Of a stretch of DNA of 64,000 nt, positions 26,001 to 47,656 are shown one piece after another (within the stretch, counting starts at the first letter, position 1; every line of letters begins with the position of its first letter). The stretch comes from Candidatus Brockarchaeota archaeon. GTDB taxonomy: Archaea > Thermoproteota > EX4484-205 > JAAOZP01. The DNA lies in assembly GCA_017601225.1 (NCBI GenBank), contig JAFNIX010000004.1, positions 68,507-132,506 on the forward strand, written 5' to 3'. Below the pieces are notes generated by a model. The model was not told where the DNA came from. It did no database searches and was given only the letters and a program-made list of their open reading frames with translations. A program made the position numbers and the translations under genes.

Positions 26001-28175
26001 ATGGAGATCGATGAAACAAGCAGAGCCATTCTTGAGAAACTGGGGGAAGACGAAAAGAAGTTGGTAGAGAAGGAGTTGAAGCCCGGAGAATTAATTTTGT
26101 CGATCGCAACGGGTGATTTGAGCGAGGACGGCAATTACTCTAAATACTTATTCATAGTTACAAATACAAGGGTGTTGAAGATCAGTGGGGAAGGAGTCAA
26201 GCATTTTGAATTAGAAATCGAGAAGGCTACACAAGCAATTTTCAACGATTATCTTGGAAACAGTGAGCTCATCCTAGTTGTCGGAGGCAAAGAAATACCT
26301 GTAGCAAGGTTTTCAAGAGACAAAATAAGCGAGTTCAGGCATGCGACAGGCGTGATAAACGCGCTTCTCCAGTATAAAGACCCTAAGGAGATAGAGTTCA
26401 AGCTATACCTTGAAAACAATGGGAAAAGCAGGAAGAGCGCAATAATTTGGCTAATATCCTATCTTAAGCCTCACTGGTACTTGGTCTTATCTGGCTTAAC
26501 CCTGTCAGTCGTGATAACTGGCCTAAACCTAGTGCCCCCCTCCCTGCTTAGGACGCTCATAGACCAGATAGCAACTCAGAAACAGGAGGCCACGTTGCTA
26601 AACCTGACTATCCTTCTAATAACCATTTACGCATTGAACACTCTGCTCGGAATACTTCAAAACTATTCGCTTTCACTGCTAAGCCAGAAACTGGTTTACA
26701 GCATGAGGAGAGACCTGTACAGCCACGTGCAGGAGCTCTCGATGTCATTCTACGATAAGATGAGCACTGGCAGGGTTATTTCAAGGATTACTGACGATAT
26801 TGGGAGAGTCCAATGGTTTCTAGTATGGGGTATACCAAGCTTAATCATCAACATTCTCTCAATAATTGGGATAGGCATAATAATATTCACGATGGACTAT
26901 AGGTTGTCTCTTTTCGCACTACTGCCTTTCCCGCTCATAATTCTTGGACTACCACGATTCAGGTCTAAAGCCAGGCTTGTCTACCATAAGGCTTGGAGGA
27001 AATGGGCTGACGTTAGCTCTCTACTAGTGGACACGATACCCGGAATATCTGTTGTGAAGTCTTTCGCCAGGGAAAAAGGCGAGGTTAACAGGTTTACTGA
27101 AAGGATGAATGAAGTGGTGAAGGCAAACCTCGACATAACTAGGTTACATCTCGGCTTTTTTCCAATCCTCGGCTTTGTAAGCTCCGCTGGAGCTGCGATA
27201 GTGTGGTACGTCGGTGGATTACACGTCATCAGTGGAGACATATCTCCAGGCACTCTGGTAGCATTCGTCAGCTACATGTGGATGTTCTACGGTCCAATTC
27301 AAACAGTGACAAACCTTGCTGAGCCACTGCAGCAGGCAATAACCTCGGGAGAACGGATTCTCGAAATACTCAGGATTGATCCGGCGGTTAAAGACGCCCC
27401 TGACGCTAAGGATTTCGAGATAATGGGGGACATAAAGTTTGAAAACGTTACATTCGGGTATGAGCCCTTCATCCCTGTTTTGAAAAACATAAATCTTGAA
27501 ATCAGAAAAGGAGAGATGGTTGGAATAGTTGGGCAAAGCGGCTCGGGTAAGACGACTTTGACAAAACTGCTGTTAAGGTTTTACGATGTGAATGAGGGCA
27601 GGATTCTGATAGATGGTGTCGACATAAGGAAAATCAAGTTGGAAAGGTTAAGGAAGAGCATAGGGATAGTTGCTCAAGACCCGTTCCTCTTCGACAACTC
27701 CGTGTTGTTCAACATAACATACGGTCTTGATAAAGTAGATTTGAAGAAGGTGATAGCTGCAGCCAAGGCTGCGAATATTCATGAGACAATAATGAACCTC
27801 CCCCTAGCGTACGATTCGCCTGTTGGAGAGAGGGGCTCAAGGCTATCAGGAGGAGAGAGGCAGAGGGTTGCGATAGCTAGGGCGATAATCCTTGAGCCCA
27901 AGATCCTAATAATGGATGAGGCAACGTCTTCGGTGGATACGCTGGCGGAGAGGCAGATACAACAGGCCTTAGACAATATCTCTAAAGAGAGAACCACGAT
28001 AGTGATTGCGCACAGGCTCTCAACCCTTCAAAGATCGAACAAGATAGTGGTGATGGATAAGGGCAAGATTGTTGAAATCGGAACTCACGACGAGCTTTTG
28101 AGGCTTAACGGGTTATATGCTAAAATATATAAAGCACAGTTTGCGGAGGCTGAGAAACAAGTTGCCGTTGCTTGA
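26001..28175 (+). CDS. ABC exporter (fused TMD-NBD) with an extra N-terminal PH-like domain of about 140 aa
   Basis: Walker A GQSGSGKTT, signature LSGGERQRV, Walker B ILIMDEATS. Six TM helices. The N-terminal GELILSIATGDL...LFIVTNTRVLKI looks like a bacterial-PH-type domain. Confidence 0.8.
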   Translation: MEIDETSRAILEKLGEDEKKLVEKELKPGELILSIATGDLSEDGNYSKYLFIVTNTRVLKISGEGVKHFELEIEKATQAIFNDYLGNSELILVVGGKEIPVARFSRDKISEFRHATGVINALLQYKDPKEIEFKLYLENNGKSRKSAIIWLISYLKPHWYLVLSGLTLSVVITGLNLVPPSLLRTLIDQIATQKQEATLLNLTILLITIYALNTLLGILQNYSLSLLSQKLVYSMRRDLYSHVQELSMSFYDKMSTGRVISRITDDIGRVQWFLVWGIPSLIINILSIIGIGIIIFTMDYRLSLFALLPFPLIILGLPRFRSKARLVYHKAWRKWADVSSLLVDTIPGISVVKSFAREKGEVNRFTERMNEVVKANLDITRLHLGFFPILGFVSSAGAAIVWYVGGLHVISGDISPGTLVAFVSYMWMFYGPIQTVTNLAEPLQQAITSGERILEILRIDPAVKDAPDAKDFEIMGDIKFENVTFGYEPFIPVLKNINLEIRKGEMVGIVGQSGSGKTTLTKLLLRFYDVNEGRILIDGVDIRKIKLERLRKSIGIVAQDPFLFDNSVLFNITYGLDKVDLKKVIAAAKAANIHETIMNLPLAYDSPVGERGSRLSGGERQRVAIARAIILEPKILIMDEATSSVDTLAERQIQQALDNISKERTTIVIAHRLSTLQRSNKIVVMDKGKIVEIGTHDELLRLNGLYAKIYKAQFAEAEKQVAVA

Positions 28176-28665
28176 AGACTTCCTGAGCAAGACATGGATT
28201 GTAGATCCAAGTAAGATAAGGATACTTAAGGGCGAGAAGCCCAGTACAGTGAAGATTGTGGGAAGTAATGGGGAAATTCTTGAGGTCATTCCTAAGAAGC
28301 CCTTCCCCATAAGCAATCCTTATTTCCTGATATTTACGGATTTTCATGGAAACGAAGTATGCATAATTGAAGACTACAGGAAGACGGATGACGAGTCGAG
28401 GAAAAACCTTGAAGAAACCCTAGGAAAACTCTATTTTATGCCAAGAATTAGAAGCGTGAGAAAGCTGGAGACTAGTGGAGACGAGTTCATATGGCATGTG
28501 GAGACGGATAGAGGGTTGAAGGAGTTCAGAACAAGGGGGAGGAGGAGTGTTAGTAGATCAGGGGAGAAGATCGTGATCATCGATACTAATGATAATGTTT
28601 ACATAGTTGAGGATATTAGTAGAGTTGATGAACGGAGCAGGGTGCTTCTTGAGGCAGTGACTTAA
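28117..28665 (+). CDS. DUF1854-like protein (ABC-exporter-associated)
   Basis: PKKPFPISNPYFLIFTDFHGNEVCIIEDYRKTDDESRKNLEETL..YFMPRIRSVRKL......WHVETDRGLKEFRTRG matches my memory of the DUF1854 pattern. The ORF overlaps the upstream ABC gene by 59 nt; the true start is probably TTG 28162 or 28168. Confidence 0.55.
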   Translation: MLKYIKHSLRRLRNKLPLLEDFLSKTWIVDPSKIRILKGEKPSTVKIVGSNGEILEVIPKKPFPISNPYFLIFTDFHGNEVCIIEDYRKTDDESRKNLEETLGKLYFMPRIRSVRKLETSGDEFIWHVETDRGLKEFRTRGRRSVSRSGEKIVIIDTNDNVYIVEDISRVDERSRVLLEAVT

Positions 28666-28783
28666 ACCCTTTAAAACCCTCGTCCAATGGCTCACATTCT
28701 AATCAAAACATATTAAGTTTAGAGTGAATACAAAATATATCTTCAGCAACTTTTAAATAGTGTTGCGGGAAGTGGTTTCAAAA

Positions 28784-30532
28784 ATGCCAAGCAGTAATAA
28801 ACACCCCTTCCTGAGGATTCTAGGATACGTTAAGCAGGAAAAAACCCTGCTACCATTAACATTAATCATGATCATTCTGGGAGCCTTGGTGAACATAGTT
28901 AGTCCAATCATCGCGGGGAGAGTTATCGACATAACAATCGTGAAAGCATTGTCAGAACTATGGTTTTATGCGGCGGCAATAATGATCCTAACGCTTTTAG
29001 CAGGAGGGATATCGTTTCTAAATGAGTATTTAAGCGAATCCTTGGCACAGAAAATAGTCTACAGGATTAGAATAAGCATTTACCGCCATCTTCAGGATTT
29101 ATCGTACAGCTTCTACGACAGGGTTGACTCCGGCCAGATTATAACGAGGGTGACTAGGGACACGGAGAACATAGGTAGACTACTCGGTTTCGCGCTTCCA
29201 AACATTATAGGCTCTGTAGCAATTCTGATAATAGTTGTTGCAATCCTTTTAACAACCAACTTTAGCCTAGCCTTAATAGCACTGGCAATAACACCTTTCA
29301 TAGGTATTGTTTCCCTATCTTTCAACCGCTTTGTAAGACCCCTGTTCGAAAGGATTTGGATGGAGACAAGCGGGATGAGCGCGATGATTCAGGAGACCGT
29401 TTCAGGCTTTAAGGTTTTGAAGACTCTTGGCGCCGAAGAAGAGATGTTTAAAAGGTTTGAGGCGAAAAACAGGGAGATATACAGCATAGGCATGAGAAGC
29501 GTCTTCCTTAGCTCGTTAACATGGCCTTCGCTCGGGTTAATAATCGGAGTCGGCTCGGCAATCGTATACTGGTATGGCGGCTTCCAGGCTATTAGGGGAG
29601 AGATCAGCCTGGGGCAACTCGTCACCTTCACGATGTACCTTGGCATGCTCATCTGGCCGATAATGTCGATAGGGTTCGTATTGTCAAGATATGCGGAGGC
29701 AATGGTGTCAGCGCGAAGAATATTCGAAGTCCTAGATACTGAGCCCGAGGTTAAGGAGAAGCCTGGTGCCATAGAGCTGAAAAACGTTAGGGGAGAAGTA
29801 TGTTTTAAGGATGTGGTGTTCGGCTACGATATGGATAAGCCGATACTTAAAGGGATGAGTTTTACGGTGAAGCCTGGGGAGAAAGTGGCTTTAGTGGGAG
29901 CAACCGGCTCTGGGAAAAGCACTGTGATCAAGCTAATACCGAGGTTTTATGACCCTCAGGAGGGCTGCATCCTGATAGATGGCGTGGATATTAGAGACGT
30001 AAAGATAAGCTCGCTTAGGAGAAACATAGGCATAGTTCATCAAGACGTTTTTCTATTCCCCACAACTATAAGGGAGAATATTGCTTACGGTAAGCCTAAC
30101 GCTACGCAGGAGGAAATAGAGAGGGCAGCTAAGGCGGCGAGAATACATGACTTCATAACTAGTCTTCCGAAAGGGTATGATACAGTTATAGGCGAGAGAG
30201 GGGTTACTCTTTCAGGTGGACAGAGACAGAGGCTGGCTATTGCCCGAGCCCTCCTCGTAAACCCCGCAATACTGATTCTGGACGATTCGACTTCAAGCGT
30301 GGATGCTGAAACAGAGAAGGAAATATATGAATCCTTGAGGGAACTTGTTAAGAACAAGACTGTCTTTATAGTCACACAGAGGCTTTCAACGCTTAAACTT
30401 AGTGAAAGAATAATTGTTATTGAAGACGGCAAGGTGGTTGAGGATGGGACGCATGAGGAACTCATGAGTAGAGGAGGAGTCTATGCTAAATTGTATGTTT
30501 CACAGTATGCTTTTCAGGAGGTGAAGCCGTAG
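28784..30532 (+). CDS. ABC exporter half-transporter (TMD-NBD)
   Basis: GATGSGKST, LSGGQRQRLA, ILILDDSTS. The ORF opens at GTG 28760; ATG 28784 is preferred. Confidence 0.85.
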   Translation: MPSSNKHPFLRILGYVKQEKTLLPLTLIMIILGALVNIVSPIIAGRVIDITIVKALSELWFYAAAIMILTLLAGGISFLNEYLSESLAQKIVYRIRISIYRHLQDLSYSFYDRVDSGQIITRVTRDTENIGRLLGFALPNIIGSVAILIIVVAILLTTNFSLALIALAITPFIGIVSLSFNRFVRPLFERIWMETSGMSAMIQETVSGFKVLKTLGAEEEMFKRFEAKNREIYSIGMRSVFLSSLTWPSLGLIIGVGSAIVYWYGGFQAIRGEISLGQLVTFTMYLGMLIWPIMSIGFVLSRYAEAMVSARRIFEVLDTEPEVKEKPGAIELKNVRGEVCFKDVVFGYDMDKPILKGMSFTVKPGEKVALVGATGSGKSTVIKLIPRFYDPQEGCILIDGVDIRDVKISSLRRNIGIVHQDVFLFPTTIRENIAYGKPNATQEEIERAAKAARIHDFITSLPKGYDTVIGERGVTLSGGQRQRLAIARALLVNPAILILDDSTSSVDAETEKEIYESLRELVKNKTVFIVTQRLSTLKLSERIIVIEDGKVVEDGTHEELMSRGGVYAKLYVSQYAFQEVKP

Positions 30533-30533
30533 G

Positions 30534-32336
30534 ATGGGGTGGCATTTCCGCCAGGCTGCTGAGGCCGAGGGGAAGCCTAGGGAAGTAGCGTCAAGAACTC
30601 TAATCGCGTGGCTCCTACGATGGTTAACCCCTATGAGGCTCCATGTAATCATTCTTGTGTTCGTAGCGCTGGCCTCAATAGGGGTCAACGTAGTAAGCCC
30701 ATACGTTACCAGGCTTCTGATAGACGAGGGCATTATGCAGGGTAATCCAGATGCCTTGGTGAAATATGTCCTAGTTCTATTGGTAATTGCTGCAGGAGGA
30801 TGGTTTTTAGGTTTCGCCAGAGGCAACTTGACTGGCAGGATAAACCAGAGGCTTCTTTACAGCATGAGAAGCACCGTTTTTAAACATATGGAGGAAATGG
30901 ATATCGCGCATGTTAACGTTGAGAGAACCGGTAAAATCATTTCGCTGATAATAAACGATATAAGTTCTATTGGAGAAGTAACAACCTCCGGAACGATAGA
31001 GGCAATGATAGGCTCGGCAACACTCCTCGGCTCACTGTACGTCATGTTCACCCTACACGTGGGGCTAAGCCTAGCAACACTCACCGTAGTACCTTTAATG
31101 CTTTTTCTCTCAAGGTATTTCGCAATTAAAACAAGACAGGCATACAGGCAAAGCAGGGAAAAGCTTAGCGAGTTGACGAGCAGTGTTGAGCAAAGCGTCT
31201 CTGGTTCAAGGGTTTCCCAATCATTCGCAGAGAGGAGAAACGTCGACATTGCTTCCTTCGACAGGCTTAGTGCTGAAACGATGAGGACAAACCTTAGGGC
31301 GAGGATAGTTTTCGCGATGATTAGGCCTTCGCTCGACGCTGTTAGAACGCTTTCCTACGTGATACTGATACTTTACGGGGGCAGCCTAGTGGTCTCGGGA
31401 GAAATCAGCATCGGCATTCTAATCGCATTCTACGGGTATGCTGAAATGTTCTACAGGCCCATAATCACTTTAACCACCTTCTACAGCACGTTGCAGGCTG
31501 CCTTGGCGGCGGCAGAAAGAGTCTATCTTTTCCTACAGGTGAAGCCCAGTGTTGTAGAGTCTAAAGAAGCGAGATGGATCGAGATAAAAACCGGTAAAAT
31601 AGAGTTGAAGAATGTTCATTTCGACTACGATGGGAACACTGTTTTCCAAGGGTTGAGCTTACAAGTTAAACCGGGCGAGATAGTTGCTATAGTTGGCCCG
31701 ACAGGAGCAGGTAAAACAACTCTAACTAACCTCATACTGAGGCTTTACGACCCCAAGGCAGGCGAGGTTCTGATAGACGACCATAATGTTAAGGAATTCT
31801 CCTTTAAATCGCTCAGGAAACAGGTGGCTTTGGTGCCTCAGGAACCAGTCCTGTTTAACGGCACGATTCTGGAGAACATAAGGCTGGGCAACATGGAGGC
31901 TGCTGATGAAGACGTTAAGAGAGTGGCTTCAGAACTTGGCTTAGACGAATTGATAAGCAGGATGCCGCAGAAATATGAGACAATAGTGTCCCCCGGAGGT
32001 GGAAACCTTTCGCTTGGAGAAAGACAGCTCATAAGCTTTGCAAGAGCCATGCTTAAGGATCCGAAGATCCTCATACTGGATGAGGCGACAAGCAGCTTGG
32101 ACTCTTACACCGAGGCGCTTCTCCAGAAGGCAATGGTGAAGCTTATGAAGGGAAGAACATGCATAATAATTGCCCACAGGCTTTCCACAGTGAAGCTTGC
32201 AAATAGGATATTGTTCTTAGAGAATGGGAGGGTAATTGAGGAAGGGACTCATGAGGAACTTTTGAAGAAGGGTGGTGCGTATGCTAAGCTATACGAGCTT
32301 CAGTTCGGTGCAGCTCCTGAAATAAAAGCGAAATAA
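30534..32336 (+). CDS. ABC exporter half-transporter (TMD-NBD), probable heterodimer partner
   Basis: GPTGAGKTT, LSLGERQLIS (a degenerate-looking signature), ILILDEATS. Starts 1 nt after the upstream stop. Confidence 0.85.
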   Translation: MGWHFRQAAEAEGKPREVASRTLIAWLLRWLTPMRLHVIILVFVALASIGVNVVSPYVTRLLIDEGIMQGNPDALVKYVLVLLVIAAGGWFLGFARGNLTGRINQRLLYSMRSTVFKHMEEMDIAHVNVERTGKIISLIINDISSIGEVTTSGTIEAMIGSATLLGSLYVMFTLHVGLSLATLTVVPLMLFLSRYFAIKTRQAYRQSREKLSELTSSVEQSVSGSRVSQSFAERRNVDIASFDRLSAETMRTNLRARIVFAMIRPSLDAVRTLSYVILILYGGSLVVSGEISIGILIAFYGYAEMFYRPIITLTTFYSTLQAALAAAERVYLFLQVKPSVVESKEARWIEIKTGKIELKNVHFDYDGNTVFQGLSLQVKPGEIVAIVGPTGAGKTTLTNLILRLYDPKAGEVLIDDHNVKEFSFKSLRKQVALVPQEPVLFNGTILENIRLGNMEAADEDVKRVASELGLDELISRMPQKYETIVSPGGGNLSLGERQLISFARAMLKDPKILILDEATSSLDSYTEALLQKAMVKLMKGRTCIIIAHRLSTVKLANRILFLENGRVIEEGTHEELLKKGGAYAKLYELQFGAAPEIKAK

Positions 32337-32424: not shown

Positions 32425-33540
32425 TCACAGCAAGTTTTCCGCCTCAACCACCAGCTTTTTAGCTTCTGCTTCGCTAATACAGAAAGTCTGGATTAATACT
32501 TTCTTAGAGCCAAGCATCTTAAGCATCGGAATCACCTTTTCCCTAGGCATGTATAACACAAGAAGTTTCCCGGCTTCCAAGATCTTGTTGTAAAGAGGTA
32601 TCCATTTTGGCGATCCACAGTCGTTTCCCTGCAGCTCTTCTCCAGCACCCGGTACCCACTGGATGCCGTCCAGCCTCTCAACCTTAAGCAGCGAGTTTAA
32701 ATGCGGTATTTCCCCCGGCCCGTCGAGATGATATATTGTCCGGTCAAGCCTTTCACACTGCTCTTTAACGTGAGGCAACACAAACTCGTCGAAAAGCTTC
32801 GGAGAAAGCATGAAGGCGAAATCGCACTGAATGGGATACCATCTTTCAGGACACCATATGCCCATCCAGGCGGAAGTACCCTCTATTCTCCTTCTTATAA
32901 TCTTATCCAACTCGTCATAGCACATATGCCAGTAGTCCATGATTTTTGAAGACAAGTATTTAACGTCCTGAGGATTCCTAGCAAGGTCGACAACCAAGTT
33001 TTTAGGGCCTCGCAACGATGCTGCGACGTCTAGTATTCCGCCCAGATCAGTCATGCCGACAATGCCGTATCCCGCCAAGGTTTCAGAAGCAGCTTCAGTT
33101 ATTCTTTTCGTAAACATCCACCATTCATTACTGGGGTCAAACTCTAAGCGCCGCAACTCCTCCCAGCTTTTCCCAAGCGCATTATTTCTTTGCGCTCCAA
33201 ACCATACTGTTTCACTCTCCAGAACTGGTTCTGCACCCAAGTATGCTCCGAGGACACCGGCACCCAAGTTTACCCAAAGGTTCGGATAGGCTTCTCCACC
33301 ATAATATGTTTCCGCGCACTGCCTCCGAAAACCCTTTATGTTTCTATCTATAGCGGCAGGATTCTTAATTGCTCTTGGAAAACCCCAGTGATCATAGTTG
33401 AACTTCAAATCCTCTTCTGAAACATACTTTGGGCTGCTTCGAGGCGCGTAAACTTGTATAAGTGGTCTGTCTAATGCATCTTTCTCCCACCAGGCTGATA
33501 GCCGCTCCTTAGCCTCGGCCCAATCCTCTTTAAAGAACAT
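32425..33540 (-). CDS. URO-D / MtaA-like family protein (tentative methylcorrinoid methyltransferase)
   Basis: QCDFAFMLSPKLFDEFVLPHVKE and IYHLDGPG..HL......LDGIQW resemble the uroporphyrinogen-decarboxylase fold. The ORF opens at 33612; ATG 33540 (MFFKEDW) lies about 27 nt after a TTTTATTTG box. Confidence 0.45.
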   Translation of the reverse strand: MFFKEDWAEAKERLSAWWEKDALDRPLIQVYAPRSSPKYVSEEDLKFNYDHWGFPRAIKNPAAIDRNIKGFRRQCAETYYGGEAYPNLWVNLGAGVLGAYLGAEPVLESETVWFGAQRNNALGKSWEELRRLEFDPSNEWWMFTKRITEAASETLAGYGIVGMTDLGGILDVAASLRGPKNLVVDLARNPQDVKYLSSKIMDYWHMCYDELDKIIRRRIEGTSAWMGIWCPERWYPIQCDFAFMLSPKLFDEFVLPHVKEQCERLDRTIYHLDGPGEIPHLNSLLKVERLDGIQWVPGAGEELQGNDCGSPKWIPLYNKILEAGKLLVLYMPREKVIPMLKMLGSKKVLIQTFCISEAEAKKLVVEAENLL

Positions 33541-33650
33541 GAAGGCTGGTTTAAAGTAATCAAATAAAAGTTTTTCGCTGAACAAGATAGTCGCACTATT
33601 AAGGCTAAACATTTTTTAAAGTTTATTTACTATTTATTGGAGCTGCACAC

Positions 33651-35498
33651 ATGCCCCTGGTAACTGTTCAACCCGAAGGTGTTAGAGTTCAGGCTCCCTA
33701 TGGGGCAAATCTATTAGCTGTGCTTAAAGAAGCAGGTGTTAACATTGAAAGCGTTTGCGGAGGGCGTGGAGTTTGTAAAAAATGCGTCGTCGAAGTTGTC
33801 AGCGGCGGGTTGACTGAGCCAACCTCGATGGAAGCAGAGGTAAGAAGCCTTTCGGAATCGTTCAGACTAGCCTGCCAGGCGCGAATCATTGGTGATATCA
33901 CTCTCAAGGTTCCTCAAACCTCTAGACAAACCAGGGGGAAGATACTGGAATGGGGGCGTGTTAAAGATTTCGGGTTTTACCCTGCAACAAGAAGCGTGAA
34001 CATTAAGATAGATGCCCCATCGCTCACCGACCAGAGGTCCGATGCTGAACGCCTCCTGCAAGCATTGAATGCGAAATCTATTGACAGGCTGCTCCTTAAG
34101 AAGCTGCCCGGTAAACTGCGTGAATTAAAATGGTACTTGGAGGCGATTCTGCATGAGGATGAAATCCTGGATGTTAGACCGCAGCGTGACCAGGACCTTT
34201 ACGGTGTTGCTGTAGACGTGGGCACCACCACGGTTGTCGCCTACCTGGTCAGCCTGAAAACCGGGCGAATCGTCTCCGTAAAATCGGATTACAATGGTCA
34301 GATAGCTTATGGTGACGACGTGATATCTAGGATAACCTACGCTGTGAAAGGAGGCAAGAACCTAGAGGAGCTTCAAAGCAAAATAGTGGCGACGATAAAC
34401 AAATTGATTCAGGATGCGGCTGATGAAGCTAAATGCTCTCCCTTCGACGTTTACGAATTATCCTTCGCTGGAAACACAGTTATGACTAGTCTCCTATATG
34501 GAGCGGAGGTTTCGGCGATAGCAGCAGCCCCCTATGTGCCACCTTTCAGGTCCAGCCTATGCTTCAAGGCTAGAGAAATAGGTCTTAGAGTTAATGATTC
34601 TGCGATTGGTTACACTTTTCCGTTAATCAGCGGCTATGTTGGGGGAGACGTGGTTGCGGACATACTTGTTTCAGGAATGCACGAGCAGGATGAGAAATCC
34701 CTCCTCATAGACCTTGGAACCAACGGTGAAGTCGTCTTGAAAGCGGGGGATCTGATGCTCGCGTCCTCCACAGCTGCGGGACCAGCTATTGAAGGAGCCG
34801 GGCTTTCAAACGGAATGAGAGGGATGGATGGTGCGATAGAATCGGTTTCGATTAACGTGGAGAACTTCGACGTTTACTATAAGACGATAGGCGACACGGA
34901 TCCGAGAGGAATATGTGGCTCCGGAGTTGTTGACGCAGTAGCATGGATGCTTATAGCCGGAGTTTTAGACCAGAAGGGAAGGATTGTTGACTTAAATATT
35001 CCGAGGATTGTGAATACGGGTGGAGATAAGGCCTTCGTGTTAGCGGTTAATAAGGAGGGTCGAAGAATCTGCATAACGCAGACAGACATCAGGAGTTTTC
35101 AACTTGCTAAGGCAGCCATATTTACTGCATGCCTACTACTTCTAAGGATTGGAGGGGTAAGTTTGAGCGAGATATCTAAAGTATACATTGCAGGAGCCTT
35201 TGGAAACTATATTGATCCAAGGTCTGCAATGATAGTTGGCATGATCCCTGAGCTTCCTTTAAGCAAAATTGTACAGATAGGAAATGGTTCAGGCCAAGGT
35301 GCAGTAATGAGCCTTCTTTCCAGAAAAGCGAGGGAAGAGGCTGAAATCGTGGCTAGGAAAGTGAGGGCTATCGATTTAAATACGCTCCGCGAGTTTCAAA
35401 GCGAATTCATTGATGCAACACTATTCCCCCATAAGAAAACGGGCATGTTTCCGAGAGTGATGAAGGCTATAAGTATGAAGACTCCTTTGCTGGATTAA
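33651..35498 (+). CDS. Corrinoid reductive activase (RACo/AcsV-like: 2Fe-2S ferredoxin plus ASKHA ATPase)
   Basis: N-terminal CGGRGVCKKC...LACQ plant-type ferredoxin motif. The rest is actin-like ATPase (VAVDVGTTT, LIDLGTNGE, GICGSG). 615 aa. Confidence 0.75.
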   Translation: MPLVTVQPEGVRVQAPYGANLLAVLKEAGVNIESVCGGRGVCKKCVVEVVSGGLTEPTSMEAEVRSLSESFRLACQARIIGDITLKVPQTSRQTRGKILEWGRVKDFGFYPATRSVNIKIDAPSLTDQRSDAERLLQALNAKSIDRLLLKKLPGKLRELKWYLEAILHEDEILDVRPQRDQDLYGVAVDVGTTTVVAYLVSLKTGRIVSVKSDYNGQIAYGDDVISRITYAVKGGKNLEELQSKIVATINKLIQDAADEAKCSPFDVYELSFAGNTVMTSLLYGAEVSAIAAAPYVPPFRSSLCFKAREIGLRVNDSAIGYTFPLISGYVGGDVVADILVSGMHEQDEKSLLIDLGTNGEVVLKAGDLMLASSTAAGPAIEGAGLSNGMRGMDGAIESVSINVENFDVYYKTIGDTDPRGICGSGVVDAVAWMLIAGVLDQKGRIVDLNIPRIVNTGGDKAFVLAVNKEGRRICITQTDIRSFQLAKAAIFTACLLLLRIGGVSLSEISKVYIAGAFGNYIDPRSAMIVGMIPELPLSKIVQIGNGSGQGAVMSLLSRKAREEAEIVARKVRAIDLNTLREFQSEFIDATLFPHKKTGMFPRVMKAISMKTPLLD

Positions 35499-36862
35499 GG
35501 CCAATAATCCTTTTCTCTGAAGGTTGGCACCTTCTCAGTAAAAGTCCTACACATCTGTTCTCTGAACGTTTCCATTTCATCCGGAAGAGAATTAATAATC
35601 CTCTTAACGCGAGATAGGAAACGGGCCTCGGGAGGGTTTATTTTTAGGAATGACGAAGCCTCAAGAAGCTCAACCGTTTTTCTGCATGCAGAAACGACTC
35701 TTCTATAGTAATCACCATGCTCGGAGACTATAGCGTTTGCAATCTCGATAGCTACATCTGGAGAGAGAACCAGCGCTTGAGGGTCGCCAAACTTATCCGA
35801 TAGGACAAACATATCTCTGAGCTCCAAAGCTTTACCAAGCATTATTGCTTCATTCATCAGCTTGCAATCGTAATATAGTATTTCTAGGAAAACCTGTGGC
35901 GCTGATCCTCCGAAAAGCCTTATGTTTTCAACCTGCTCGTTTGACCATAGATCGCAGCATGCGGAAGCAATATTCCCTACCAGACTGGAATGCGCGCAAG
36001 CACTGCTTTTTCCCTCCATCGACATTGGGACCCCAGTTACTGCTTTCAGAATCACGTTTTCATAGCCGCAGTCCTTCCCCGGGCCTGTTGCCCCTTGTTC
36101 ATAGGCAACTAGAGATCTGGCTGCCGACATGGCTCTCACTATTGCGGCAAGTGTGTGAGGCAGAGACATTGATTTAACACCGCCTGCAAGCTTCATCGCT
36201 GTGTTTGCGATAGCGCAAGCAGTATCCCCGCCCGCTATACAACCGTTTCTCCTTGCAACCTTAACGATATCATTCCAAAGAAAGCCCATGTCTAAAGATG
36301 CTAATAGGATTGAAAAGACTATTCCTTCAATATCCTGTCTAATTATGCTGTGGTTAAAAATGTCTTTACCTCCTTCTGATTCTATCGACAGAACGTCTGC
36401 ACCATTGGAAGAAACAGCGTCAAAAGTGTCCATCATGAGATTATAGTTTGCGGTTGTTCTTAAGCCTTCTCGGAAATCCCTTATGTCGGCAACCGTAACC
36501 CTGAACCCCAGTTTTATACCATGTTCGTCGAAATATTTTTCCATCAACGCTTTTTGAAGACTTGCTATTTCAGCAGCAAGCATAGGGTTCTTAGTTTCCA
36601 TGAATGTCAGCTCAGTCTCTATTTGAAGAGATGGAATGCCGAGTTCAACAGCCCTTTCAAGTATCTCTCTCGTTATAGTTTGAACCTCAGTTTTAAACCC
36701 GATGGGATTATTACCTGAAAAAACCCTTGGGAAAAATTTCACTTCTGGAATTACCTCTCCTTTTCCAACATTAAGCCCGAGACCATAATTCAAAGGATGT
36801 TTAGCCGACCCGAATATTAATTCGGAAGGCTTTTCTATCTCTAATTTACTGAATAAAACCAT
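35495..36862 (-). CDS. mtaB: MtaB-family methanol(-like substrate):corrinoid methyltransferase
   Basis: 455 aa. The N-terminal third (FGSAKHPLNYGLGLNVGKGEVIPEVKF...LQIETELTF...EKYFDEHGIKLGFRVTVADIRDF) parallels methanogen MtaB as I remember it. It lies directly upstream of a corrinoid protein gene. Confidence 0.6.
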   Translation of the reverse strand: MVLFSKLEIEKPSELIFGSAKHPLNYGLGLNVGKGEVIPEVKFFPRVFSGNNPIGFKTEVQTITREILERAVELGIPSLQIETELTFMETKNPMLAAEIASLQKALMEKYFDEHGIKLGFRVTVADIRDFREGLRTTANYNLMMDTFDAVSSNGADVLSIESEGGKDIFNHSIIRQDIEGIVFSILLASLDMGFLWNDIVKVARRNGCIAGGDTACAIANTAMKLAGGVKSMSLPHTLAAIVRAMSAARSLVAYEQGATGPGKDCGYENVILKAVTGVPMSMEGKSSACAHSSLVGNIASACCDLWSNEQVENIRLFGGSAPQVFLEILYYDCKLMNEAIMLGKALELRDMFVLSDKFGDPQALVLSPDVAIEIANAIVSEHGDYYRRVVSACRKTVELLEASSFLKINPPEARFLSRVKRIINSLPDEMETFREQMCRTFTEKVPTFREKDYWP

Positions 36863-36896
36863 TACGCTTGCCCTCTGATTTAACAGCCCTTATTTT

Positions 36897-37544
36897 TTAC
36901 TTCTTGCCTACCCAAGCCTTGCAAATATCTACCCCGACTACAGCATCCTTACCATAACCGTCGGCACCTATCCTCTTAGCATACTCCTCTGTTATCGGAG
37001 CCCCGCCTATTATTACTTTAACCTTTTCCCGTACGCCAGCTTTCTCAAGCTCTTTTATCACGTTCTCCATTTCGACCATCGTAACAGTGAGGAGTGCCGA
37101 CATACCCACAATGTCAGGCTTATGGTTCTTCACAGCCTCTACAAAAGCTTCAGCCGGAACATCGTTACCAAGATCTATGACTTCAAACCCGGCTGCTTCA
37201 AGCATCATTCCGAAAATATTCTTACCGATATCGTGAAGATCACCCTTAACGGTTCCTATTACAACCTTGCCTATCTTCTTAATTTCCGAGCCCTTCATGT
37301 AGGGCTGCAACATTTGGGATATTTCCTTGCCTATTTCACCCGCAACAATCAGCTCTGACAGAAAGTATTCCGATGCCTCGAACTTTCTCCCAACCTCCTC
37401 CATGGCGGAGCTTATTGCTTTAGTAATGATCTCGTTAGGCGGTATCCCTTTCGCAACAGCCTCCTGTGCTAGACGCTTAGAGCCGTCGAAATCCAGGTTA
37501 ACTATAGCATCTTTAAGTCTCGTAAGTAGACCTACCTCGGACAT
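36897..37544 (-). CDS. mtaC: Cobalamin-binding corrinoid protein (MtaC-like)
   Basis: GDLHDIGKNI (DxHxxG), MSALLTVTM (SxL) and VIIGGAPI (GG) B12-binding motifs after a helical cap domain. 215 aa. Confidence 0.85.
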   Translation of the reverse strand: MSEVGLLTRLKDAIVNLDFDGSKRLAQEAVAKGIPPNEIITKAISSAMEEVGRKFEASEYFLSELIVAGEIGKEISQMLQPYMKGSEIKKIGKVVIGTVKGDLHDIGKNIFGMMLEAAGFEVIDLGNDVPAEAFVEAVKNHKPDIVGMSALLTVTMVEMENVIKELEKAGVREKVKVIIGGAPITEEYAKRIGADGYGKDAVVGVDICKAWVGKK

Positions 37545-37734: not shown

Positions 37735-38877
37735 TTGGAGAAAATTAACATTTCCTTAATTGGTTGTGGAGGCATGATGGGGGCACACGTAAACGGGCTT
37801 AGGCAGTTGTATTCAAGAGGACTAAGGGTTTTTGAAGTGAAGGCTGTTTGCGACGTGAAGGAGTCTCTTGCAAGGGAGAAGGCTAAGCTGGTTGCAGAGT
37901 TCCAAGACTCAGAGCCAAAGGTTTACACGAATGTTGAAGAGATGCTAAGGCACGAAAGCCTCGACGCTGTAGACATAGCTCTGCCTCACAACGTGCACCA
38001 CACGGTTGCAAATACTTGTCTGGAACAAGGGCTGGATGTGATCATAGAAAAGCCATTGGGAATAACAATGAGGGCTGCGAGGAGTATCTTGGAGAAAGCG
38101 AGGAAGAATAATAGGGTACTTGCTGTTGCCGAGAACTATAGGCGGACCCCTGAGAACAGAGCAATTTACTGGGCTCTGGAGCAGGGTTTGATAGGTGAGC
38201 CGAGGATGATTGTCTGGATCTCTGCAGGATGGAACCCTGGAGCCTGGGGCTGGAGGGAGGATAAGTATGCTGCAGGAGGAAGCTGGGTTTTCGACGGCGG
38301 AGTCCACCTGGCGGATTTGGACAGGTACCACCTTAGAAAGGAAGCAGTAGAAGTATACGCTGTCCAAAAGACCTTTGAACCTGTTAGAGACGGGGTTAAA
38401 GTTACTGTTGACGACATGACGATGGCAATAATCATCTACGATGGAGAAGTTTATGCACAGTGGCTATGGACAAGAGCCGCTCCAGGAAAAGCTATAAACC
38501 TAAGGACGATATACGGTTCTAAAGGCGCCGTAGGAAACGATGGCCTTTTCATTCAGAGGGAAAACTTTATTGAAACCCAGAGCATGAACACGCTTGTAAG
38601 TAGAATGTTTGAAAGACTCCAGCCTGAAGAAAAAGCAAAATGGTTCCCGAAGGATATAACTGACACTATTGCCACGGAGCTCTATGATTTTTACGATTCT
38701 GTCATGAACCATCGGCCCCCGGAGGTTGATGGCGTCGAGGCTTACAGGGATATGGCAATACCCTTAGGATTTTACGAATCAGCCCTTCTTAAAAAACCAG
38801 TGAGCGTCAGAGACGTGGAGGAACTCCGGATTGAAGAATATCAGAAAGAAATAAACGAGAAGCTTGGAATCTCTTAA
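37735..38877 (+). CDS. Gfo/Idh/MocA-family oxidoreductase
   Basis: ISLIGCGGMMGAHV Rossmann N-terminus and the EKPLG motif. TTG start. Confidence 0.8.
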   Translation: MEKINISLIGCGGMMGAHVNGLRQLYSRGLRVFEVKAVCDVKESLAREKAKLVAEFQDSEPKVYTNVEEMLRHESLDAVDIALPHNVHHTVANTCLEQGLDVIIEKPLGITMRAARSILEKARKNNRVLAVAENYRRTPENRAIYWALEQGLIGEPRMIVWISAGWNPGAWGWREDKYAAGGSWVFDGGVHLADLDRYHLRKEAVEVYAVQKTFEPVRDGVKVTVDDMTMAIIIYDGEVYAQWLWTRAAPGKAINLRTIYGSKGAVGNDGLFIQRENFIETQSMNTLVSRMFERLQPEEKAKWFPKDITDTIATELYDFYDSVMNHRPPEVDGVEAYRDMAIPLGFYESALLKKPVSVRDVEELRIEEYQKEINEKLGIS

Positions 38878-38973
38878 ACAATACGCTAGGAACCAGTGAC
38901 ACAGTTTAGTAGGTTGCGTAAAAATGCTTGCTATTAGAAAATGTTTAATACTGCTTGCCACCCGTCCCTCGTC

Positions 38974-39909
38974 ATGACCAGGATGCAGGCCCAGAACCCT
39001 TTGAGAAGCTATTGTCTAATCCCGGCGACTCTAACACCTATGACGAAGGATTTCGAGGTTGATTATGATCAGCTTGAGGATTACGTGAGGTGGCTGGTGA
39101 AACACGGTATTGGAGGGGTTGCTGTCAACGTTGACACTGGAGAGGGACCTCATCTTTACCCTGAGGAACGTGTAAATATTCTGAAAGCCTTCTCCAAGAT
39201 TGTAGCGGGAAGAATACCTGTAATCGCCGGGCTACATGCTCGAAACACCATGGAAGCGGTTAGACTAGGATTGGAAGCCAAGGAGGCCGGTGCAGACGGA
39301 TTGCTCGTCTTCCCGCATCCAGCTTTTGCAGGCGAGCCTAATGACATCGTAATCTACAACTATCACTTGGAAATATCTGAGAAAGTCGGTTTACCAATGA
39401 TCCTTTTCCAACTGCAACAGGCTTTAGGCGGCGTAGACTTCACGCCTGAAACACTGTTAAAACTCGCAAGTATTAAGAATGTGATAGCGATTAAGGAGGC
39501 TTCTTTCGACGCCAGGAAGTTCGTCAACGTTGTTCACACTTTGAAGAAAGCAGACAGGAAGATAATGATCCTCACGGGTAATGATAACTTCATATACGAG
39601 TCTCTGGTGCTTGGTGCGGAAGGCGGCCTACTGGGCTTCGGGACAATAGCTGTAGAGCAGCAGGTTGAAATGTTCAACCTTTTCGCTAAAGGCAGGCTAA
39701 CTGAGGCTAGAGAAATATGGGAGGAGCTAATACCCTTGGAAGAAGTCATTTTCGCTCAGCCAGTTAGAGACTATAGGGCGCGCCTCAAGGAGGCTCTTGT
39801 AATGATGGGAGTATTGAAAACATCTTACGTTAGGCCACCTTTGCAGCCAGTGTCCGAGAAGGATAAGGAAGCCATAAAACAGGCTTTGAAAAGCCTGAAG
39901 CTACTCTAG
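38974..39909 (+). CDS. DapA / N-acetylneuraminate-lyase-family class I aldolase
   Basis: LIPATLTPMTKDFEVDYDQL, GIGGVAVNV.TGEG, IAIKEAS (Schiff-base Lys context). The ORF opens at 38941; ATG 38974 or 38983 is more likely. Confidence 0.7.
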   Translation: MTRMQAQNPLRSYCLIPATLTPMTKDFEVDYDQLEDYVRWLVKHGIGGVAVNVDTGEGPHLYPEERVNILKAFSKIVAGRIPVIAGLHARNTMEAVRLGLEAKEAGADGLLVFPHPAFAGEPNDIVIYNYHLEISEKVGLPMILFQLQQALGGVDFTPETLLKLASIKNVIAIKEASFDARKFVNVVHTLKKADRKIMILTGNDNFIYESLVLGAEGGLLGFGTIAVEQQVEMFNLFAKGRLTEAREIWEELIPLEEVIFAQPVRDYRARLKEALVMMGVLKTSYVRPPLQPVSEKDKEAIKQALKSLKLL

Positions 39910-39913
39910 GGAA

Positions 39914-41113
39914 ATGGCCGGAATAGACCTGTCCGTAAACATATCTGGGGTTGAGTTTACGAACCCTCTGATCGTGGCCTCCGGGCCTCCCACGCTTTCC
40001 CCACAACAAGTTTTAAAATGTATAAGAGCGGGCGCCGCGGGAGCTGTTACTAAAACCATAACTTACGATGTGAAGCAGCAGGTTCAGCCTAAGCCGAGGA
40101 TGCTCGTAGTAAACCCGGAGGATGCTTTGAGAAACAGGTTTTACTCTTTCTACTCTATAGACTTGATGTCAGAGCATAAGCCTGAACTCTGGCTCAGGCA
40201 ACTCAGGGAAGTCAAAAAAGAGGCCAAGGCCTACGGGGGCGTGATAATAGCAAGTATTGCTGGCAGAACGTTCGAGGAATGGGAGAAACTGGCCAGGCTT
40301 GTTGAGGAAGCCGGTGTAGACATGGTTGAGCTTAACCTTTCATGTCCACATTTAGAAAAGGGCGAATTAATGGGGAGAGCCATAACCTCCAGTCCCGAGA
40401 AGGTTTCGGAAGTAGTTAAGACGGTTAGGCGAGCCACGTCACTACCTGTAATAGGCAAGTTGACCCCCCAGGGCGCGAACCCTGTTGAACTAGCGAAGAC
40501 CATGGTTTCCTCAGGAGTGAATGCTCTTGTTTCAACAGCCAGGTTTCAAGGCCTGATCGTCGACCTGGAGACCATGCAGCCTGTCTCATGGGGTGGGTTT
40601 GGAGGATATGGGGGGCCTTGGCAAATACCCATTAGCGTCGGCTGGACTGCACACATAGCCATGGAGAAGCTGGGCGTGCCAATAATAGGCTCCGGCGGAG
40701 TTTCAAAGTGGGAGGATGCGGCACAGCTTATTCTCGTAGGCGCGTCAGCGGTTCAGATCTGCACGGCGATCATGATAAACGGGTTAAAGATTATTCAGGA
40801 GATACTGGGCGGCATTGAGAAATGGATGGTCAGCAAAGGCTTTCAGAGCATTGCTGACTTCTCCGGAATCACTTTAGGCAAAATCGTGCCCCTAGAGAAG
40901 CTTGAGAGAAGAAAACGGTTCCAGCTTCACATCGATTCTGAGAAATGCGTAAAATGCGGCCTCTGCATAAGGGTCTGCCCCTACAATGCTTTAAACGCTG
41001 AAAACGCTTCAAGCATCCCAGAACCGGATCAGGAGAGATGTGACAACTGCGGCCTCTGCCTATCCATATGTCCGAGAAGAGCGATCCGCTTCGAAGAGGG
41101 CAGTGGGGAATGA
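39914..41113 (+). CDS. Dihydroorotate/dihydropyrimidine dehydrogenase-like flavoprotein with C-terminal 2x[4Fe-4S] ferredoxin (PreA-like)
   Basis: FTNPLIVASGP and ELNLSCPH motifs, plus CVKCGLCIRVCP and CDNCGLCLSICP. Confidence 0.7.
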   Translation: MAGIDLSVNISGVEFTNPLIVASGPPTLSPQQVLKCIRAGAAGAVTKTITYDVKQQVQPKPRMLVVNPEDALRNRFYSFYSIDLMSEHKPELWLRQLREVKKEAKAYGGVIIASIAGRTFEEWEKLARLVEEAGVDMVELNLSCPHLEKGELMGRAITSSPEKVSEVVKTVRRATSLPVIGKLTPQGANPVELAKTMVSSGVNALVSTARFQGLIVDLETMQPVSWGGFGGYGGPWQIPISVGWTAHIAMEKLGVPIIGSGGVSKWEDAAQLILVGASAVQICTAIMINGLKIIQEILGGIEKWMVSKGFQSIADFSGITLGKIVPLEKLERRKRFQLHIDSEKCVKCGLCIRVCPYNALNAENASSIPEPDQERCDNCGLCLSICPRRAIRFEEGSGE

Positions 41114-42183
41114 ACGATTCCTCTGGAAACGGCCGTTGGATTCATCCGCTTTGCCACCCGCTTGAGGCAAGCAAGAACGGACCCTTTATCACCCTCGACG
41201 ACGACACTTTAATGACTATAGATAGTGAAGGATTAAAGATAAGCAGTGATGAGGGGAGAACATGGTCTCCACCATTATCTACTCTTCCGGGGATAAAGAG
41301 CGAAGAACCCGGTTCACACTATATTCTGCAGACTAGGAACAAGACTATCGTAACTATCTACTTGGATTTCACAACCTACAGGTTTAGCTGGAACGATGAA
41401 AAAAGTGAACCTGGCGACGACTGTAAGCTTGAACTTTGGGCAGCCCGCAGCCTAGACGGTGGCAAGACTTGGATTGATAAGCAAAAGCTTTTAGAGGGTT
41501 TTAATGCCAATTTCTTCGGATTCATCCAGACTAGGAGCGGGAGGATCGTAGCCACGGTTGAACACTTAGCTAGAAACCCTGGGCGCCTAGTAGCCTGCTC
41601 CCTGATTTCAGATGACGAAGGAAAAACGTGGAGAAGAAGTAACTTCATCGATCTCGGCGGGCGAGGCCACCATGATGGGGCTATGGAGCCTACTGTAGCA
41701 GAGTTGAGCGATGGACGTTTACTCATGCTCATAAGAACAACCCTGGACCGCTTCTGGGAGGCTATTTCAGAGGACGGAGGAGAATATTGGCGTATCATCA
41801 AGCCCAGCCGGATAGATGCGAGTAACTCTCCGGGATACTTGCTGAGGCTTAAGAGTAACCGTCTGGTTCTCGTTTGGAACCGTCTAAACCCTGAGGGAAG
41901 AGTATGGGAGAAGGCTAAACCTGGACCGGCTTCAGAGAGACCAGTGTCCTGGCACAGGGAGGAGCTCTCAATAGCTTTCTCTGAGGATGATGGTGAAAAG
42001 TGGACTAAACCAGTGGTTATAGCAAGGCAGAAGGATGGACAGTTAAGCTATCCCTTCGTGTTTGAGCGTCGCCCCGGTGAGCTCTGGATTACTGCAGGCT
42101 TTGCCTTTAAAAAAGGATGGTGGGAGCCGCTGCCACTTAGGCTTAAGCTGTTCGAGGATGAATTTTTAAGGGGAGCATTGTAA
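41110..42183 (+). CDS. BNR-repeat beta-propeller (sialidase/GH33-like fold; catalytic identity unproven)
   Basis: Five SxDxGxTW-type repeats: SSDEGRTWS, SLDGGKTWI, SDDEGKTWR, SEDGGEYWR, SEDDGEKWT. ATG 41110 overlaps the upstream TGA (ATGA). No signal peptide, and I saw no RIP motif. Confidence 0.6.
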   Translation: MNDSSGNGRWIHPLCHPLEASKNGPFITLDDDTLMTIDSEGLKISSDEGRTWSPPLSTLPGIKSEEPGSHYILQTRNKTIVTIYLDFTTYRFSWNDEKSEPGDDCKLELWAARSLDGGKTWIDKQKLLEGFNANFFGFIQTRSGRIVATVEHLARNPGRLVACSLISDDEGKTWRRSNFIDLGGRGHHDGAMEPTVAELSDGRLLMLIRTTLDRFWEAISEDGGEYWRIIKPSRIDASNSPGYLLRLKSNRLVLVWNRLNPEGRVWEKAKPGPASERPVSWHREELSIAFSEDDGEKWTKPVVIARQKDGQLSYPFVFERRPGELWITAGFAFKKGWWEPLPLRLKLFEDEFLRGAL

Positions 42184-42285
42184 AACATACCCTATAATCA
42201 ACCCACTGGCAGTCATTCCACCTTGTGCCTTTGGTCAAGCAGAAAAAGTTAATAGAAGCAGAAACATGAATCTGTTCGATGGGAA

Positions 42286-44882: not shown

Positions 44883-44986
44883 TGCTAAGCTGCTGGTTTC
44901 AACGAGTAGCATACCCTCTGGCCTCATTGTTTCCAGCAAAAAATTAATTACTTCATTCAGCTATTTACCAAAGGGTGAAGAATAGT

Positions 44987-45781: not shown

Positions 45782-45822
45782 ACATTGCAGCGAGTAAAAA
45801 AGCCATCATCAAAAGCCTTAAT

Positions 45823-46467: not shown

Positions 46468-46588
46468 GTTGTAGAGAGAAGAATTCTTTGTTTTAAAACA
46501 TATTGTGATACACCATCCGTGAAGGAACAGGTAGACTAAAATGAGGGTTTAAAGCAATGCCGCCCTTCAGAAACTGGAATCCGCGATT

Positions 46589-47551: not shown

Positions 47552-47656
47552 CTCAGATTGTTCTTGTTTAATGAGAAGCTATAATATTTTTCCTTCAAGG
47601 GTTAAGGCATAGAATTACAGTTTGGTCCTTGAAAAAAAGGATTTGTAAAGGCTTAA

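Follow-up and report, generated by a model that had tools for sequence, protein, structure and literature searches.

A published methanol methyltransferase module of a Brockarchaeota archaeon and its undescribed UroD-fold neighbour

Results

The locus and its published record

We analysed 64 kb of the forward strand of contig C42 (C42:68507-132506) from DRTY-6.80, the metagenome-assembled genome (MAG) of a hot-spring archaeon of the Brockarchaeota. We call this whole stretch the window, and coordinates below are window positions unless a contig is named. The contig is NODE_4_length_137945 of that MAG (supplement of De Anda et al. 2021), and sequence comparison showed that the loci closest to the window are held by Brockarchaeota MAGs. 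The assembly comprises 2.32 Mb and is 89.7% complete; all the genomes that we compared are MAGs. A previous sequence-only reading of the window had proposed that four adjacent genes make up a complete-looking corrinoid methyltransferase module. The listing of open reading frames (ORFs) confirmed the four genes and their positions (table 1): they encode a substrate:corrinoid methyltransferase (MtaB), a corrinoid protein (MtaC), a reductive activase (RACo) and a divergent member of the UroD superfamily, which we call X.

Table 1. Genes and candidate promoters of the module, in window positions.
Feature	Coordinates	Strand	Description
Gene X, divergent UroD-superfamily protein	32425..33540	-	371 aa; longest ORF to 33612 = 395 aa
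Candidate gene X promoter	33562..33578	-	BRE/TATA-like block GCGAAAAACTTTTATTT, 22-38 nt upstream of start 33540
Candidate RACo promoter	33612..33630	+	conserved A/T-rich block TTTTTTAAAGTTTATTTAC, 21-39 nt upstream of RACo start 33651
RACo-type reductive activase	33651..35498	+	615 aa; 2Fe-2S ferredoxin, linker, middle and ASKHA ATPase domains
MtaB, methanol:corrinoid methyltransferase (MT1)	35495..36862	-	455 aa; PF12176, 2i2x_A
MtaC-type corrinoid protein	36897..37544	-	215 aa; short MtbC/MtgC-like form

These genes have been tabulated before. Supplementary Data 9 of De Anda et al. (2021, Nat Commun 12:2404, PMC8065059) gives MtaB as gene 78, with 455 aa, and its operon table places COG0407 at 100931-102118(-), COG3894 at 102157-104004(+), MtaB at 104001-105368(-) and COG5012 at 105403-106050(-). 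Since these coordinates correspond to window positions 32425-37544, the four-gene module was already known, from the very same locus. The sequence-only reading had mentioned that similar MtaBC genes were reported from metagenomes of non-methanogens. This is correct, but the relation is closer than similarity: what lies here is the methanol methyltransferase module already published for a non-methanogenic archaeon of the Brockarchaeota.

The published text shows a tree of MtaB and interprets only this protein and the co-localised corrinoid protein, while the supplement lists the activase and the neighbouring COG0407 gene in a table, without discussing them (PMC8065059). Its authors state that MtaA is lacking, postulate that an undescribed protein hands the methyl group to tetrahydrofolate (THF), and propose oxidation to formate with a gain of ATP; their supplement reports the CODH/ACS branch as absent (PMC8065059). 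The only undescribed part of the module is the neighbouring UroD-fold gene X. The same study considered the methanol system to be unique to Brockarchaeota within TACK (PMC8065059). We found MtaB in 35 of 301 Thermoproteota genomes drawn evenly across the phylum, distributed over 12 genera, so this claim of uniqueness is outdated. Database names of the carriers include Thermofilaceae, Bathyarchaeia and Nitrososphaeria.

MtaB, the corrinoid protein and the activase

MtaB matches PF12176 with 571 bits, over profile positions 4-459 of 460, and the Methanosarcina barkeri structure 2i2x_A with E 5.1e-124 (phmmer). Because these matches are full-length, the protein belongs to the MtaB family, as the sequence alone had suggested. 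The MtvB, MtoB and MttB families have folds or Pfam families other than that of MtaB. The zinc ligands of the M. barkeri enzyme (Glu164, Cys220 and Cys269) align with Glu, Cys and Cys in the segments SIESEGGK, ACAIAN and GKDCGYEN, and family membership together with these ligands suggests that the enzyme acts on methanol. Its score on the methanogen equivalog NF040651 is 549 bits for a cut-off of 720, which places it in the family outside the curated methanogen clade. The gene is present in single copy in the genome.

The gene of the corrinoid protein lies on the same strand as mtaB, 34 nt upstream of it. The protein matches both B12-binding domains (PF02310 at 2e-31, B12-binding_2 PF02607 at 3e-16), and its DxHxxG, SxL and GG motifs are indeed readable in the translation as DLHDIG, SALL and IIGGAP. 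Among NCBIfam models, it is closer to those of MtgC and MtbC than to MtaC. It is the only stand-alone corrinoid protein of the genome: tblastn found no paralogue of it there, and PF02310 occurs elsewhere only in one domain of a 493-aa ORF. The activase has the ferredoxin and ASKHA parts that had been read in it, with all four Pfam domains above their cut-offs (Fer2 9e-12, RACo_linker 2e-15, Raco_middle 1e-57 and RACo_C_ter 1e-86) and a C-x4-C-x2-C...C pattern in the N-terminal 80 residues. It scores 484 bits on the AcsV model of NCBIfam, under the equivalog cut-off of 800, and has a partial match of 136 bits to the RamA model, whose cut-off is 500. It too is the sole copy in the genome. The stop codons of the convergent RACo and mtaB genes overlap within TTAA (35495-35498), as previously noted.

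Gene X has a predicted UroD fold and lacks the zinc motif of MtaA

We first delimited gene X. When we aligned the region between X and RACo from 10 loci of the Brockarchaeota, two promoter-like blocks stood out. One of them fits the archaeal BRE/TATA consensus (B recognition element and TATA box) and is likely to be the promoter of X itself, while the conservation of the other makes it the likely promoter of RACo. The close homologues of X measure about 371 aa, and their alignments extend over 94% of the 395-aa query. These lengths, together with the promoter-like block preceding Met25, indicate that the true gene is the one given in table 1 and that the 395-aa ORF is an in-frame upstream extension of it. 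The sequence-only reading had described the protein as unusually long. It is not: the members of its family have 350-390 aa, and the other UroD paralogues of the genome are alike.

Sequence libraries gave little information on X. The protein had no match in Pfam and NCBIfam (E <= 0.01), including the MtaA/CmuA models TIGR01463 and NF040654, and none in the PDB, either by phmmer or by hmmsearch with a profile of 29 sequences. It is also not one of the 26 matches to PF01208 in the genome. Structure was more informative. An AlphaFold2 model built from the 29-sequence alignment had a predicted local distance difference test score of 95.8 and a predicted template modelling (TM) score of 0.92. The top Foldseek match of the model is 4ay7, the MtaA of M. 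mazei (E 2.7e-8, TM 0.60-0.65), followed by seven UroD chains (E <= 2.4e-4), and hhalign relates X to the UroD paralogues of the same genome with a probability of 97.2%. In this model X has the (beta/alpha)8 barrel fold of the UroD type, at about 13% identity to MtaA in the structural alignment. Therefore, the description of the fourth gene as UroD/MtaA-like stands at the level of the fold, but finds no support in the sequence libraries or in the H-x-C motif. MtaA carries a zinc motif of the form H-x-C...C, which is missing in X: in the hhalign comparison, H271-L-D273 of X falls where the MtaA-like protein of the genome has its zinc motif, LHICG. This H-x-D is invariant among the 29 aligned sequences, as are Q238-C239-D240, H280, Q294-W295, K325 and many tryptophans.

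We count at least 824 database clusters in the family of X, which is present in the genomes of at least 581 species from the Thermoproteota and from bacteria that degrade glycans. We found no curated model for it and no discussion of it in the literature that we searched. The 2.3-Mb genome, with its one stand-alone corrinoid protein, has about 25 genes of the UroD superfamily (the 26 PF01208 matches), for example at C6:11079, C55:45802-49176, C12:26670 and C42:13989, 36526 and 53880. Most of them carry H-[ST]-D-G and not the H-x-C of MtaA, and three of the genes are direct neighbours on C55.

Candidates for the acceptor side are encoded elsewhere in the genome

The absence of methanogenesis genes, previously noted for the window, extends to the genome: McrA (PF02249) was not found in the assembly, while it was detected in the control methanogens. 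No member of the Pterin_bind family was found in the genome either. The sequence-only reading had recommended a genome-wide search for one-carbon (C1) pathways. This uncovered a THF cluster outside the window (C55:9884-18363), in which a gene of the MtrH family (C55:12896-13810; PF02007, 294 bits) lies between formate-THF ligase (758 bits) and PurN. The MtrH-like protein matches over its full length 6sj8, deposited as a methylcorrinoid:tetrahydrofolate methyltransferase (E 1e-67). The cluster also encodes FolD, a 5-formyl-THF cyclo-ligase fused to an ECF-S-like membrane domain and a FolC-like ligase. We considered the 262-aa ORF upstream of the formate-THF ligase (C55:9884-10672) as a methylene-THF reductase and could not assign it as such, for it had no match in Pfam or in the PDB.

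The genome also encodes an MtaA-like protein (C42:30914-31891) that scores 239 bits on NF004889 and 217 bits on MtaA_Meth. It matches 4ay7 with E 1e-42 and aligns with it at LHICG and at a downstream Cys (PAC), so that the H-x-C...C motif is intact. Its gene lies about 70 kb upstream of the module and 37.6 kb upstream of the start of the window, flanked by an ABC transporter and an aldehyde:ferredoxin oxidoreductase. Both genes left a trace in the published data: mtrH is listed for DRTY-6.80 in the table of KEGG orthologues and never mentioned in the main text, and the gene at 30914-31891 of NODE_4 is counted only as COG0407 and not discussed (PMC8065059). These two proteins are better candidates for the acceptor side than X. 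The MtrH-family protein, in particular, is most likely the 'undescribed' second methyltransferase of the published model. In this respect, the module had been called complete too generously as regards X, which lacks the zinc motif, is not an obligate partner of MtaB (see below) and shares the genome with a canonical MtaA-like gene and MtrH. Two genes of the MttB superfamily (C23:12124-14882 and C12:76470-77876) have no adjacent corrinoid protein; the gene before the C23 copy encodes a 406-aa protein that matches UroD weakly.

Gene X is found with corrinoid proteins and MtrH more often than with MtaB

We then studied the distribution of X in the 301 genomes, with statistics that ignore kinship. 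The gene is present in 38 of them, and MtaB in 35. Both occur together in 17 genomes, two of which have only pseudogene fragments of MtaB, leaving 21 of the 38 carriers of X without MtaB and 18 of the 35 carriers of MtaB without X. Outside the order, the overlap is of 3 in 21 (p = 0.17). In the sister family, which belongs to the same order, X and MtaB are on different contigs. These contigs, and the genomes with only one of the two genes, show that the partnership of X with MtaB is not obligatory.

Among close relatives, whose X is 77% identical or more, the association is tighter: X-RACo-MtaB(-MtaC) is kept in 10 of 11, despite changes in the flanking genes. This arrangement varies among the loci. 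In L010 the flanks are different and MtaC is absent, and in L023 there is no RACo and MtaC-MtaB-X-UroD-UroD are contiguous on one strand. In two related Brockarchaeota species mtaB is fragmentary or nearly deleted (L017:7172-8044 and L022:6129-6586), while X, RACo and MtaC are full-length. Conversely, two species of the same genus (G129 and G185) keep RACo-MtaB-MtaC without X.

The corrinoid protein and MtrH give a different picture. A protein with B12-binding_2 is encoded in 37 of the 38 genomes with X and in 128 of the 263 without it (Fisher 6e-10), and MtrH in 30 of 38 and 85 of 263, respectively (5e-8). Of 50 genomes with X that span many phyla of archaea and bacteria, 47 had a B12-binding_2 protein, mostly stand-alone and of about 220 aa. 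The corrinoid protein of six genomes that have X and lack MtaB is 55-65% identical to the MtaC of DRTY-6.80.

Two types of bacterial loci are relevant in this context. A Neomarinimicrobiota MAG (L085:4-12592) encodes on one strand GH13 - X - epimerase - GH2 - MtaB - MtaC - cupin - sugar-binding protein, where GH stands for glycoside hydrolase. It is an independent case of MtaBC and X being paired with glycan genes. In this locus, the GH13 gene encodes an alpha-amylase with a tail of the type IX secretion system, the X homologue is possibly frameshifted, and an aldo-keto reductase and a flavodoxin complete the set. In three other bacteria (an Ignavibacteriota and two unclassified), MtaB is followed by a fusion of about 585 aa between an MtaA-like protein and MtaC (L104:30-3717, L105:2326-5471 and L106:2547-5601).

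The flanking genes

The flanks are those previously described, ABC exporters on the left and sugar enzymes on the right. In the left flank (26001-32336), three ABC exporter genes point the same way, and a DUF1854 gene overlaps the first of them at its end. The tightly packed right flank (37735-48901) encodes a Gfo/Idh/MocA oxidoreductase, a DHDPS-family lyase, a DHOdh-like Fe-S flavoprotein and a BNR protein, and then a fucose-isomerase-like protein, an alpha/beta hydrolase, an M55 peptidase, a PfkB kinase and a GH29 alpha-L-fucosidase. The alpha/beta hydrolase, an esterase, has weak matches to glucuronyl-esterases and acetyl-xylan-esterases.

Discussion

Comparison with characterized systems

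The module has clear similarities with the MtaABC and RamA proteins of Methanosarcina (2i2x, 4ay7): MtaB is homologous over its full length and has identical zinc ligands, the corrinoid gene is directly upstream, and there are an ATP-dependent reductive activase and a UroD-fold protein nearby. DRTY-6.80 differs from it by the lack of methyl-CoM (coenzyme M) reductase, by a short corrinoid protein of the 215-aa type, by an activase of the 2Fe-2S RACo type that is closest to AcsV, by an MtaB below the methanogen equivalog cut-off (549 vs 720) and by a neighbour, X, without the zinc motif of MtaA. The bacterial three- and four-component systems that deliver methyl groups to THF, such as those for methanol and O-demethylation in acetogens or that for glycine betaine with MtgA in Desulfitobacterium hafniense (6sj8), share with it the MT1 enzyme, the corrinoid protein, RACo and the second methyltransferase (MT2). 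In contrast to them, the parts in Brockarchaeota are spread over three loci instead of one operon, the host is an archaeon and CODH/ACS is reported as absent.

The donor-side enzymes of O-demethylases are proteins of the UroD superfamily. The list given by Kountz and Balskus (2023, PMC10418091) agrees with this. X is far more divergent than these bacterial MT1 enzymes, having no match in Pfam. The same authors described type 1 mlp clusters, in which UroD-superfamily methyltransferases of non-methanogens accompany a corrinoid protein and a Ram/RACE activase; these Mlps are thiol or selenol methyltransferases with more than 25% identity to characterized CoM methyltransferases (PMC10418091). With about 13% identity to MtaA and no zinc motif, X is unlike them, and it is the separate MtaA-like protein of the genome that resembles an Mlp.

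A model for the module and for X

Our overall explanation, to which we give a probability of about 0.6, is that the locus is the published methanol module and that X is a further corrinoid-dependent methyltransferase, and not an obligatory equivalent of MtaA. Homology shows MtaB and MtaC to be the pair that activates methanol, and RACo to be the reductive activase. In our model, the zinc-dependent MtaB would move the methyl group of methanol to the Co(I) of MtaC, and RACo, as its domain architecture suggests, would use its 2Fe-2S cluster and ATP to restore Co(II) to Co(I). The methyl group would most likely leave MtaC through the MtrH/MtgA-type methylcorrinoid:tetrahydrofolate methyltransferase and feed the C1 pathway of THF. 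The MtaA-like zinc enzyme may provide a second outlet, perhaps to a thiol. We propose with moderate confidence that X is an additional methyltransferase acting on the same corrinoid protein, used as a hub, and on the same activase. It would probably be on the donor side, as an enzyme of the MT1 type, with a methylated or methoxylated substrate, possibly a sugar.

The components of this proposal are not equally probable. That X depends on a corrinoid is slightly favoured; that it is specifically a donor-side methyltransferase has somewhat less than even odds, whereas an acceptor-side role is unlikely. We prefer the donor side to the acceptor side because the substrate diversity of such systems resides in the MT1 enzymes, because there are about 25 UroD paralogues per carrier, and because, where MtaB is lost, X is retained along with MtaC and RACo. 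The presence of so many UroD genes for one corrinoid protein fits the idea of many donor-side enzymes loading one carrier. A broader and doubtful version is that X founds a large UroD clade, for which there is no model, of corrinoid-dependent donor-side methyltransferases with an H-x-D metal site, unloaded to THF by MtrH/MtgA, and that the roughly 25 UroD paralogues would all load one hub corrinoid protein.

Several observations weigh against a corrinoid-dependent X. To our knowledge, its H-x-D motif has no characterized precedent. The co-occurrence statistics have no phylogenetic correction, and the background of the corrinoid protein in the phylum is already of 49-55%; the lineages with X are anaerobic glycan degraders that may have corrinoid proteins for other reasons. 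We searched 72 loci from outside the Brockarchaeota by tblastn with MtaB, MtaC, RACo, MtrH-like, MtaA-like and MttB queries, and only two (L085 and L059) have a gene of a corrinoid system near X; the gene of a corrinoid protein itself is close to X in just 1 of the 72. The recurrent neighbours of X are UroD paralogues, Gfo/Idh/MocA oxidoreductases, DHDPS-family lyases and GH4 glycosidases. No conserved methyltransferase or activase was found beside the orphan corrinoid genes of the six genomes with X and without MtaB, whose neighbours are radical SAM proteins, alcohol dehydrogenase, phosphoglucomutase, GMP synthase and a Gfo oxidoreductase. Among the long PF02607 ORFs of X-bearing bacteria, there was no fusion of X to a B12-binding domain; these ORFs either fuse an MtaA-like protein with MtaC or encode chains of some 900 aa whose N-terminal part is unassigned. 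Since the antisense RACo gene stands between X and mtaCB, and X is preceded by a conserved promoter-like element of its own, X is unlikely to be co-transcribed with mtaCB. As regards the outlet of the pathway, MtrH is missing from several relatives with MtaB, so it cannot be a universal outlet, although those genomes are incomplete.

Alternative explanations

One might regard X as the missing second methyltransferase, the equivalent of MtaA that unloads CH3-MtaC and methylates the physiological acceptor, in which case the four genes would form a complete module. The proposal draws on the published account, where MtaA is lacking and an undescribed protein is postulated (PMC8065059). MtaA is also the best structural match of X, which adjoins RACo-MtaB-MtaC in 10 of 11 close relatives and is contiguous and co-directional with MtaC-MtaB in L023; moreover, some genomes of the same order have X and MtaB and no detectable MtrH. 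We nevertheless regard this explanation as improbable. In MtaA, the H-x-C...C zinc site activates the thiol acceptor, and X has H-x-D in its place. Either gene is found without the other, both across the phylum (18/35 and 21/38, with no significant overlap outside the order) and in close relatives, where X can be absent from an intact module (G129, G185) or outlive MtaB (L017, L022). The genome has canonical MtaA-like and MtgA-like MtrH genes as well, and the bacterial fusions pair MtaC with the MtaA-like type and not with X. A more serious competitor, which we hold to be possible and clearly short of even odds, assigns X to sugar catabolism, as a UroD-fold enzyme with no corrinoid role, and supposes that mtaC-mtaB-RACo was inserted in one genus into an older Gfo/DHDPS/X locus. 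In distant genomes, the direct neighbours of X are Gfo/Idh/MocA (L030, L031), a DHDPS-family lyase (L051, L086), a GH4 glycosidase (L068, L070, L077) or other UroD paralogues. Removing the bracketed genes from the order in the window, DHDPS-GFO-[MtaC-MtaB-RACo]-X, yields these arrangements, and an insertion would explain the adjacency equally well. Adjacency to MtaB is limited to this genus, with separate contigs in relatives of the same order, and both the promoter-like element of X and its many invariant tryptophans suit a sugar enzyme. Set against this are the nearly universal co-occurrence of X with a small corrinoid protein and MtrH at the genome level, the linkage to the remaining genes of the module that survives four rearrangements (L010, L023, L017, L022), and the independent bacterial locus uniting X, MtaB and MtaC (L085). 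In addition, every UroD-superfamily member known to us as characterized, apart from the decarboxylases, transfers alkyl or methyl groups. PMC10418091 gives a list that accords with this. There is also a small chance that X is something other than a corrinoid-dependent or a sugar enzyme.

The purpose of the module can be questioned independently of X. It might serve methyl salvage or biosynthesis instead of energy-yielding methylotrophy, for example by providing methionine and folate with methyl groups from the methanol released in pectin or xylan breakdown. A glycan-degrading genome with one MtaB, one corrinoid protein and one activase would be compatible with this, as would the position of the module among fucose and sugar genes and an esterase, the parallel bacterial locus amid GH13 and GH2 genes, and the repeated loss of MtaB in close relatives, which is expected of an accessory trait. 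However, a THF cluster with formate-THF ligase fits equally well the oxidation to formate with a gain of ATP, and nothing discriminates between the two in terms of flux or purpose. We find salvage rather unlikely.

Implications

The core module adds nothing to the account of methylotrophy in Brockarchaeota given in 2021. The MtgA-like MtrH and canonical MtaA-like genes are ordinary candidates for the enzyme that was thought to be missing, which makes the published pathway directly testable. In archaea and bacteria alike, the distribution of the X family follows that of small corrinoid proteins and of MtrH, and yet its members sit among sugar genes. If the broader version of our proposal were true, it would imply the anaerobic demethylation of methylated sugars or methoxylated compounds during the breakdown of polysaccharides. 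If X is a corrinoid-dependent demethylase, polysaccharide degradation would be linked to C1 metabolism in many uncultured anaerobes.

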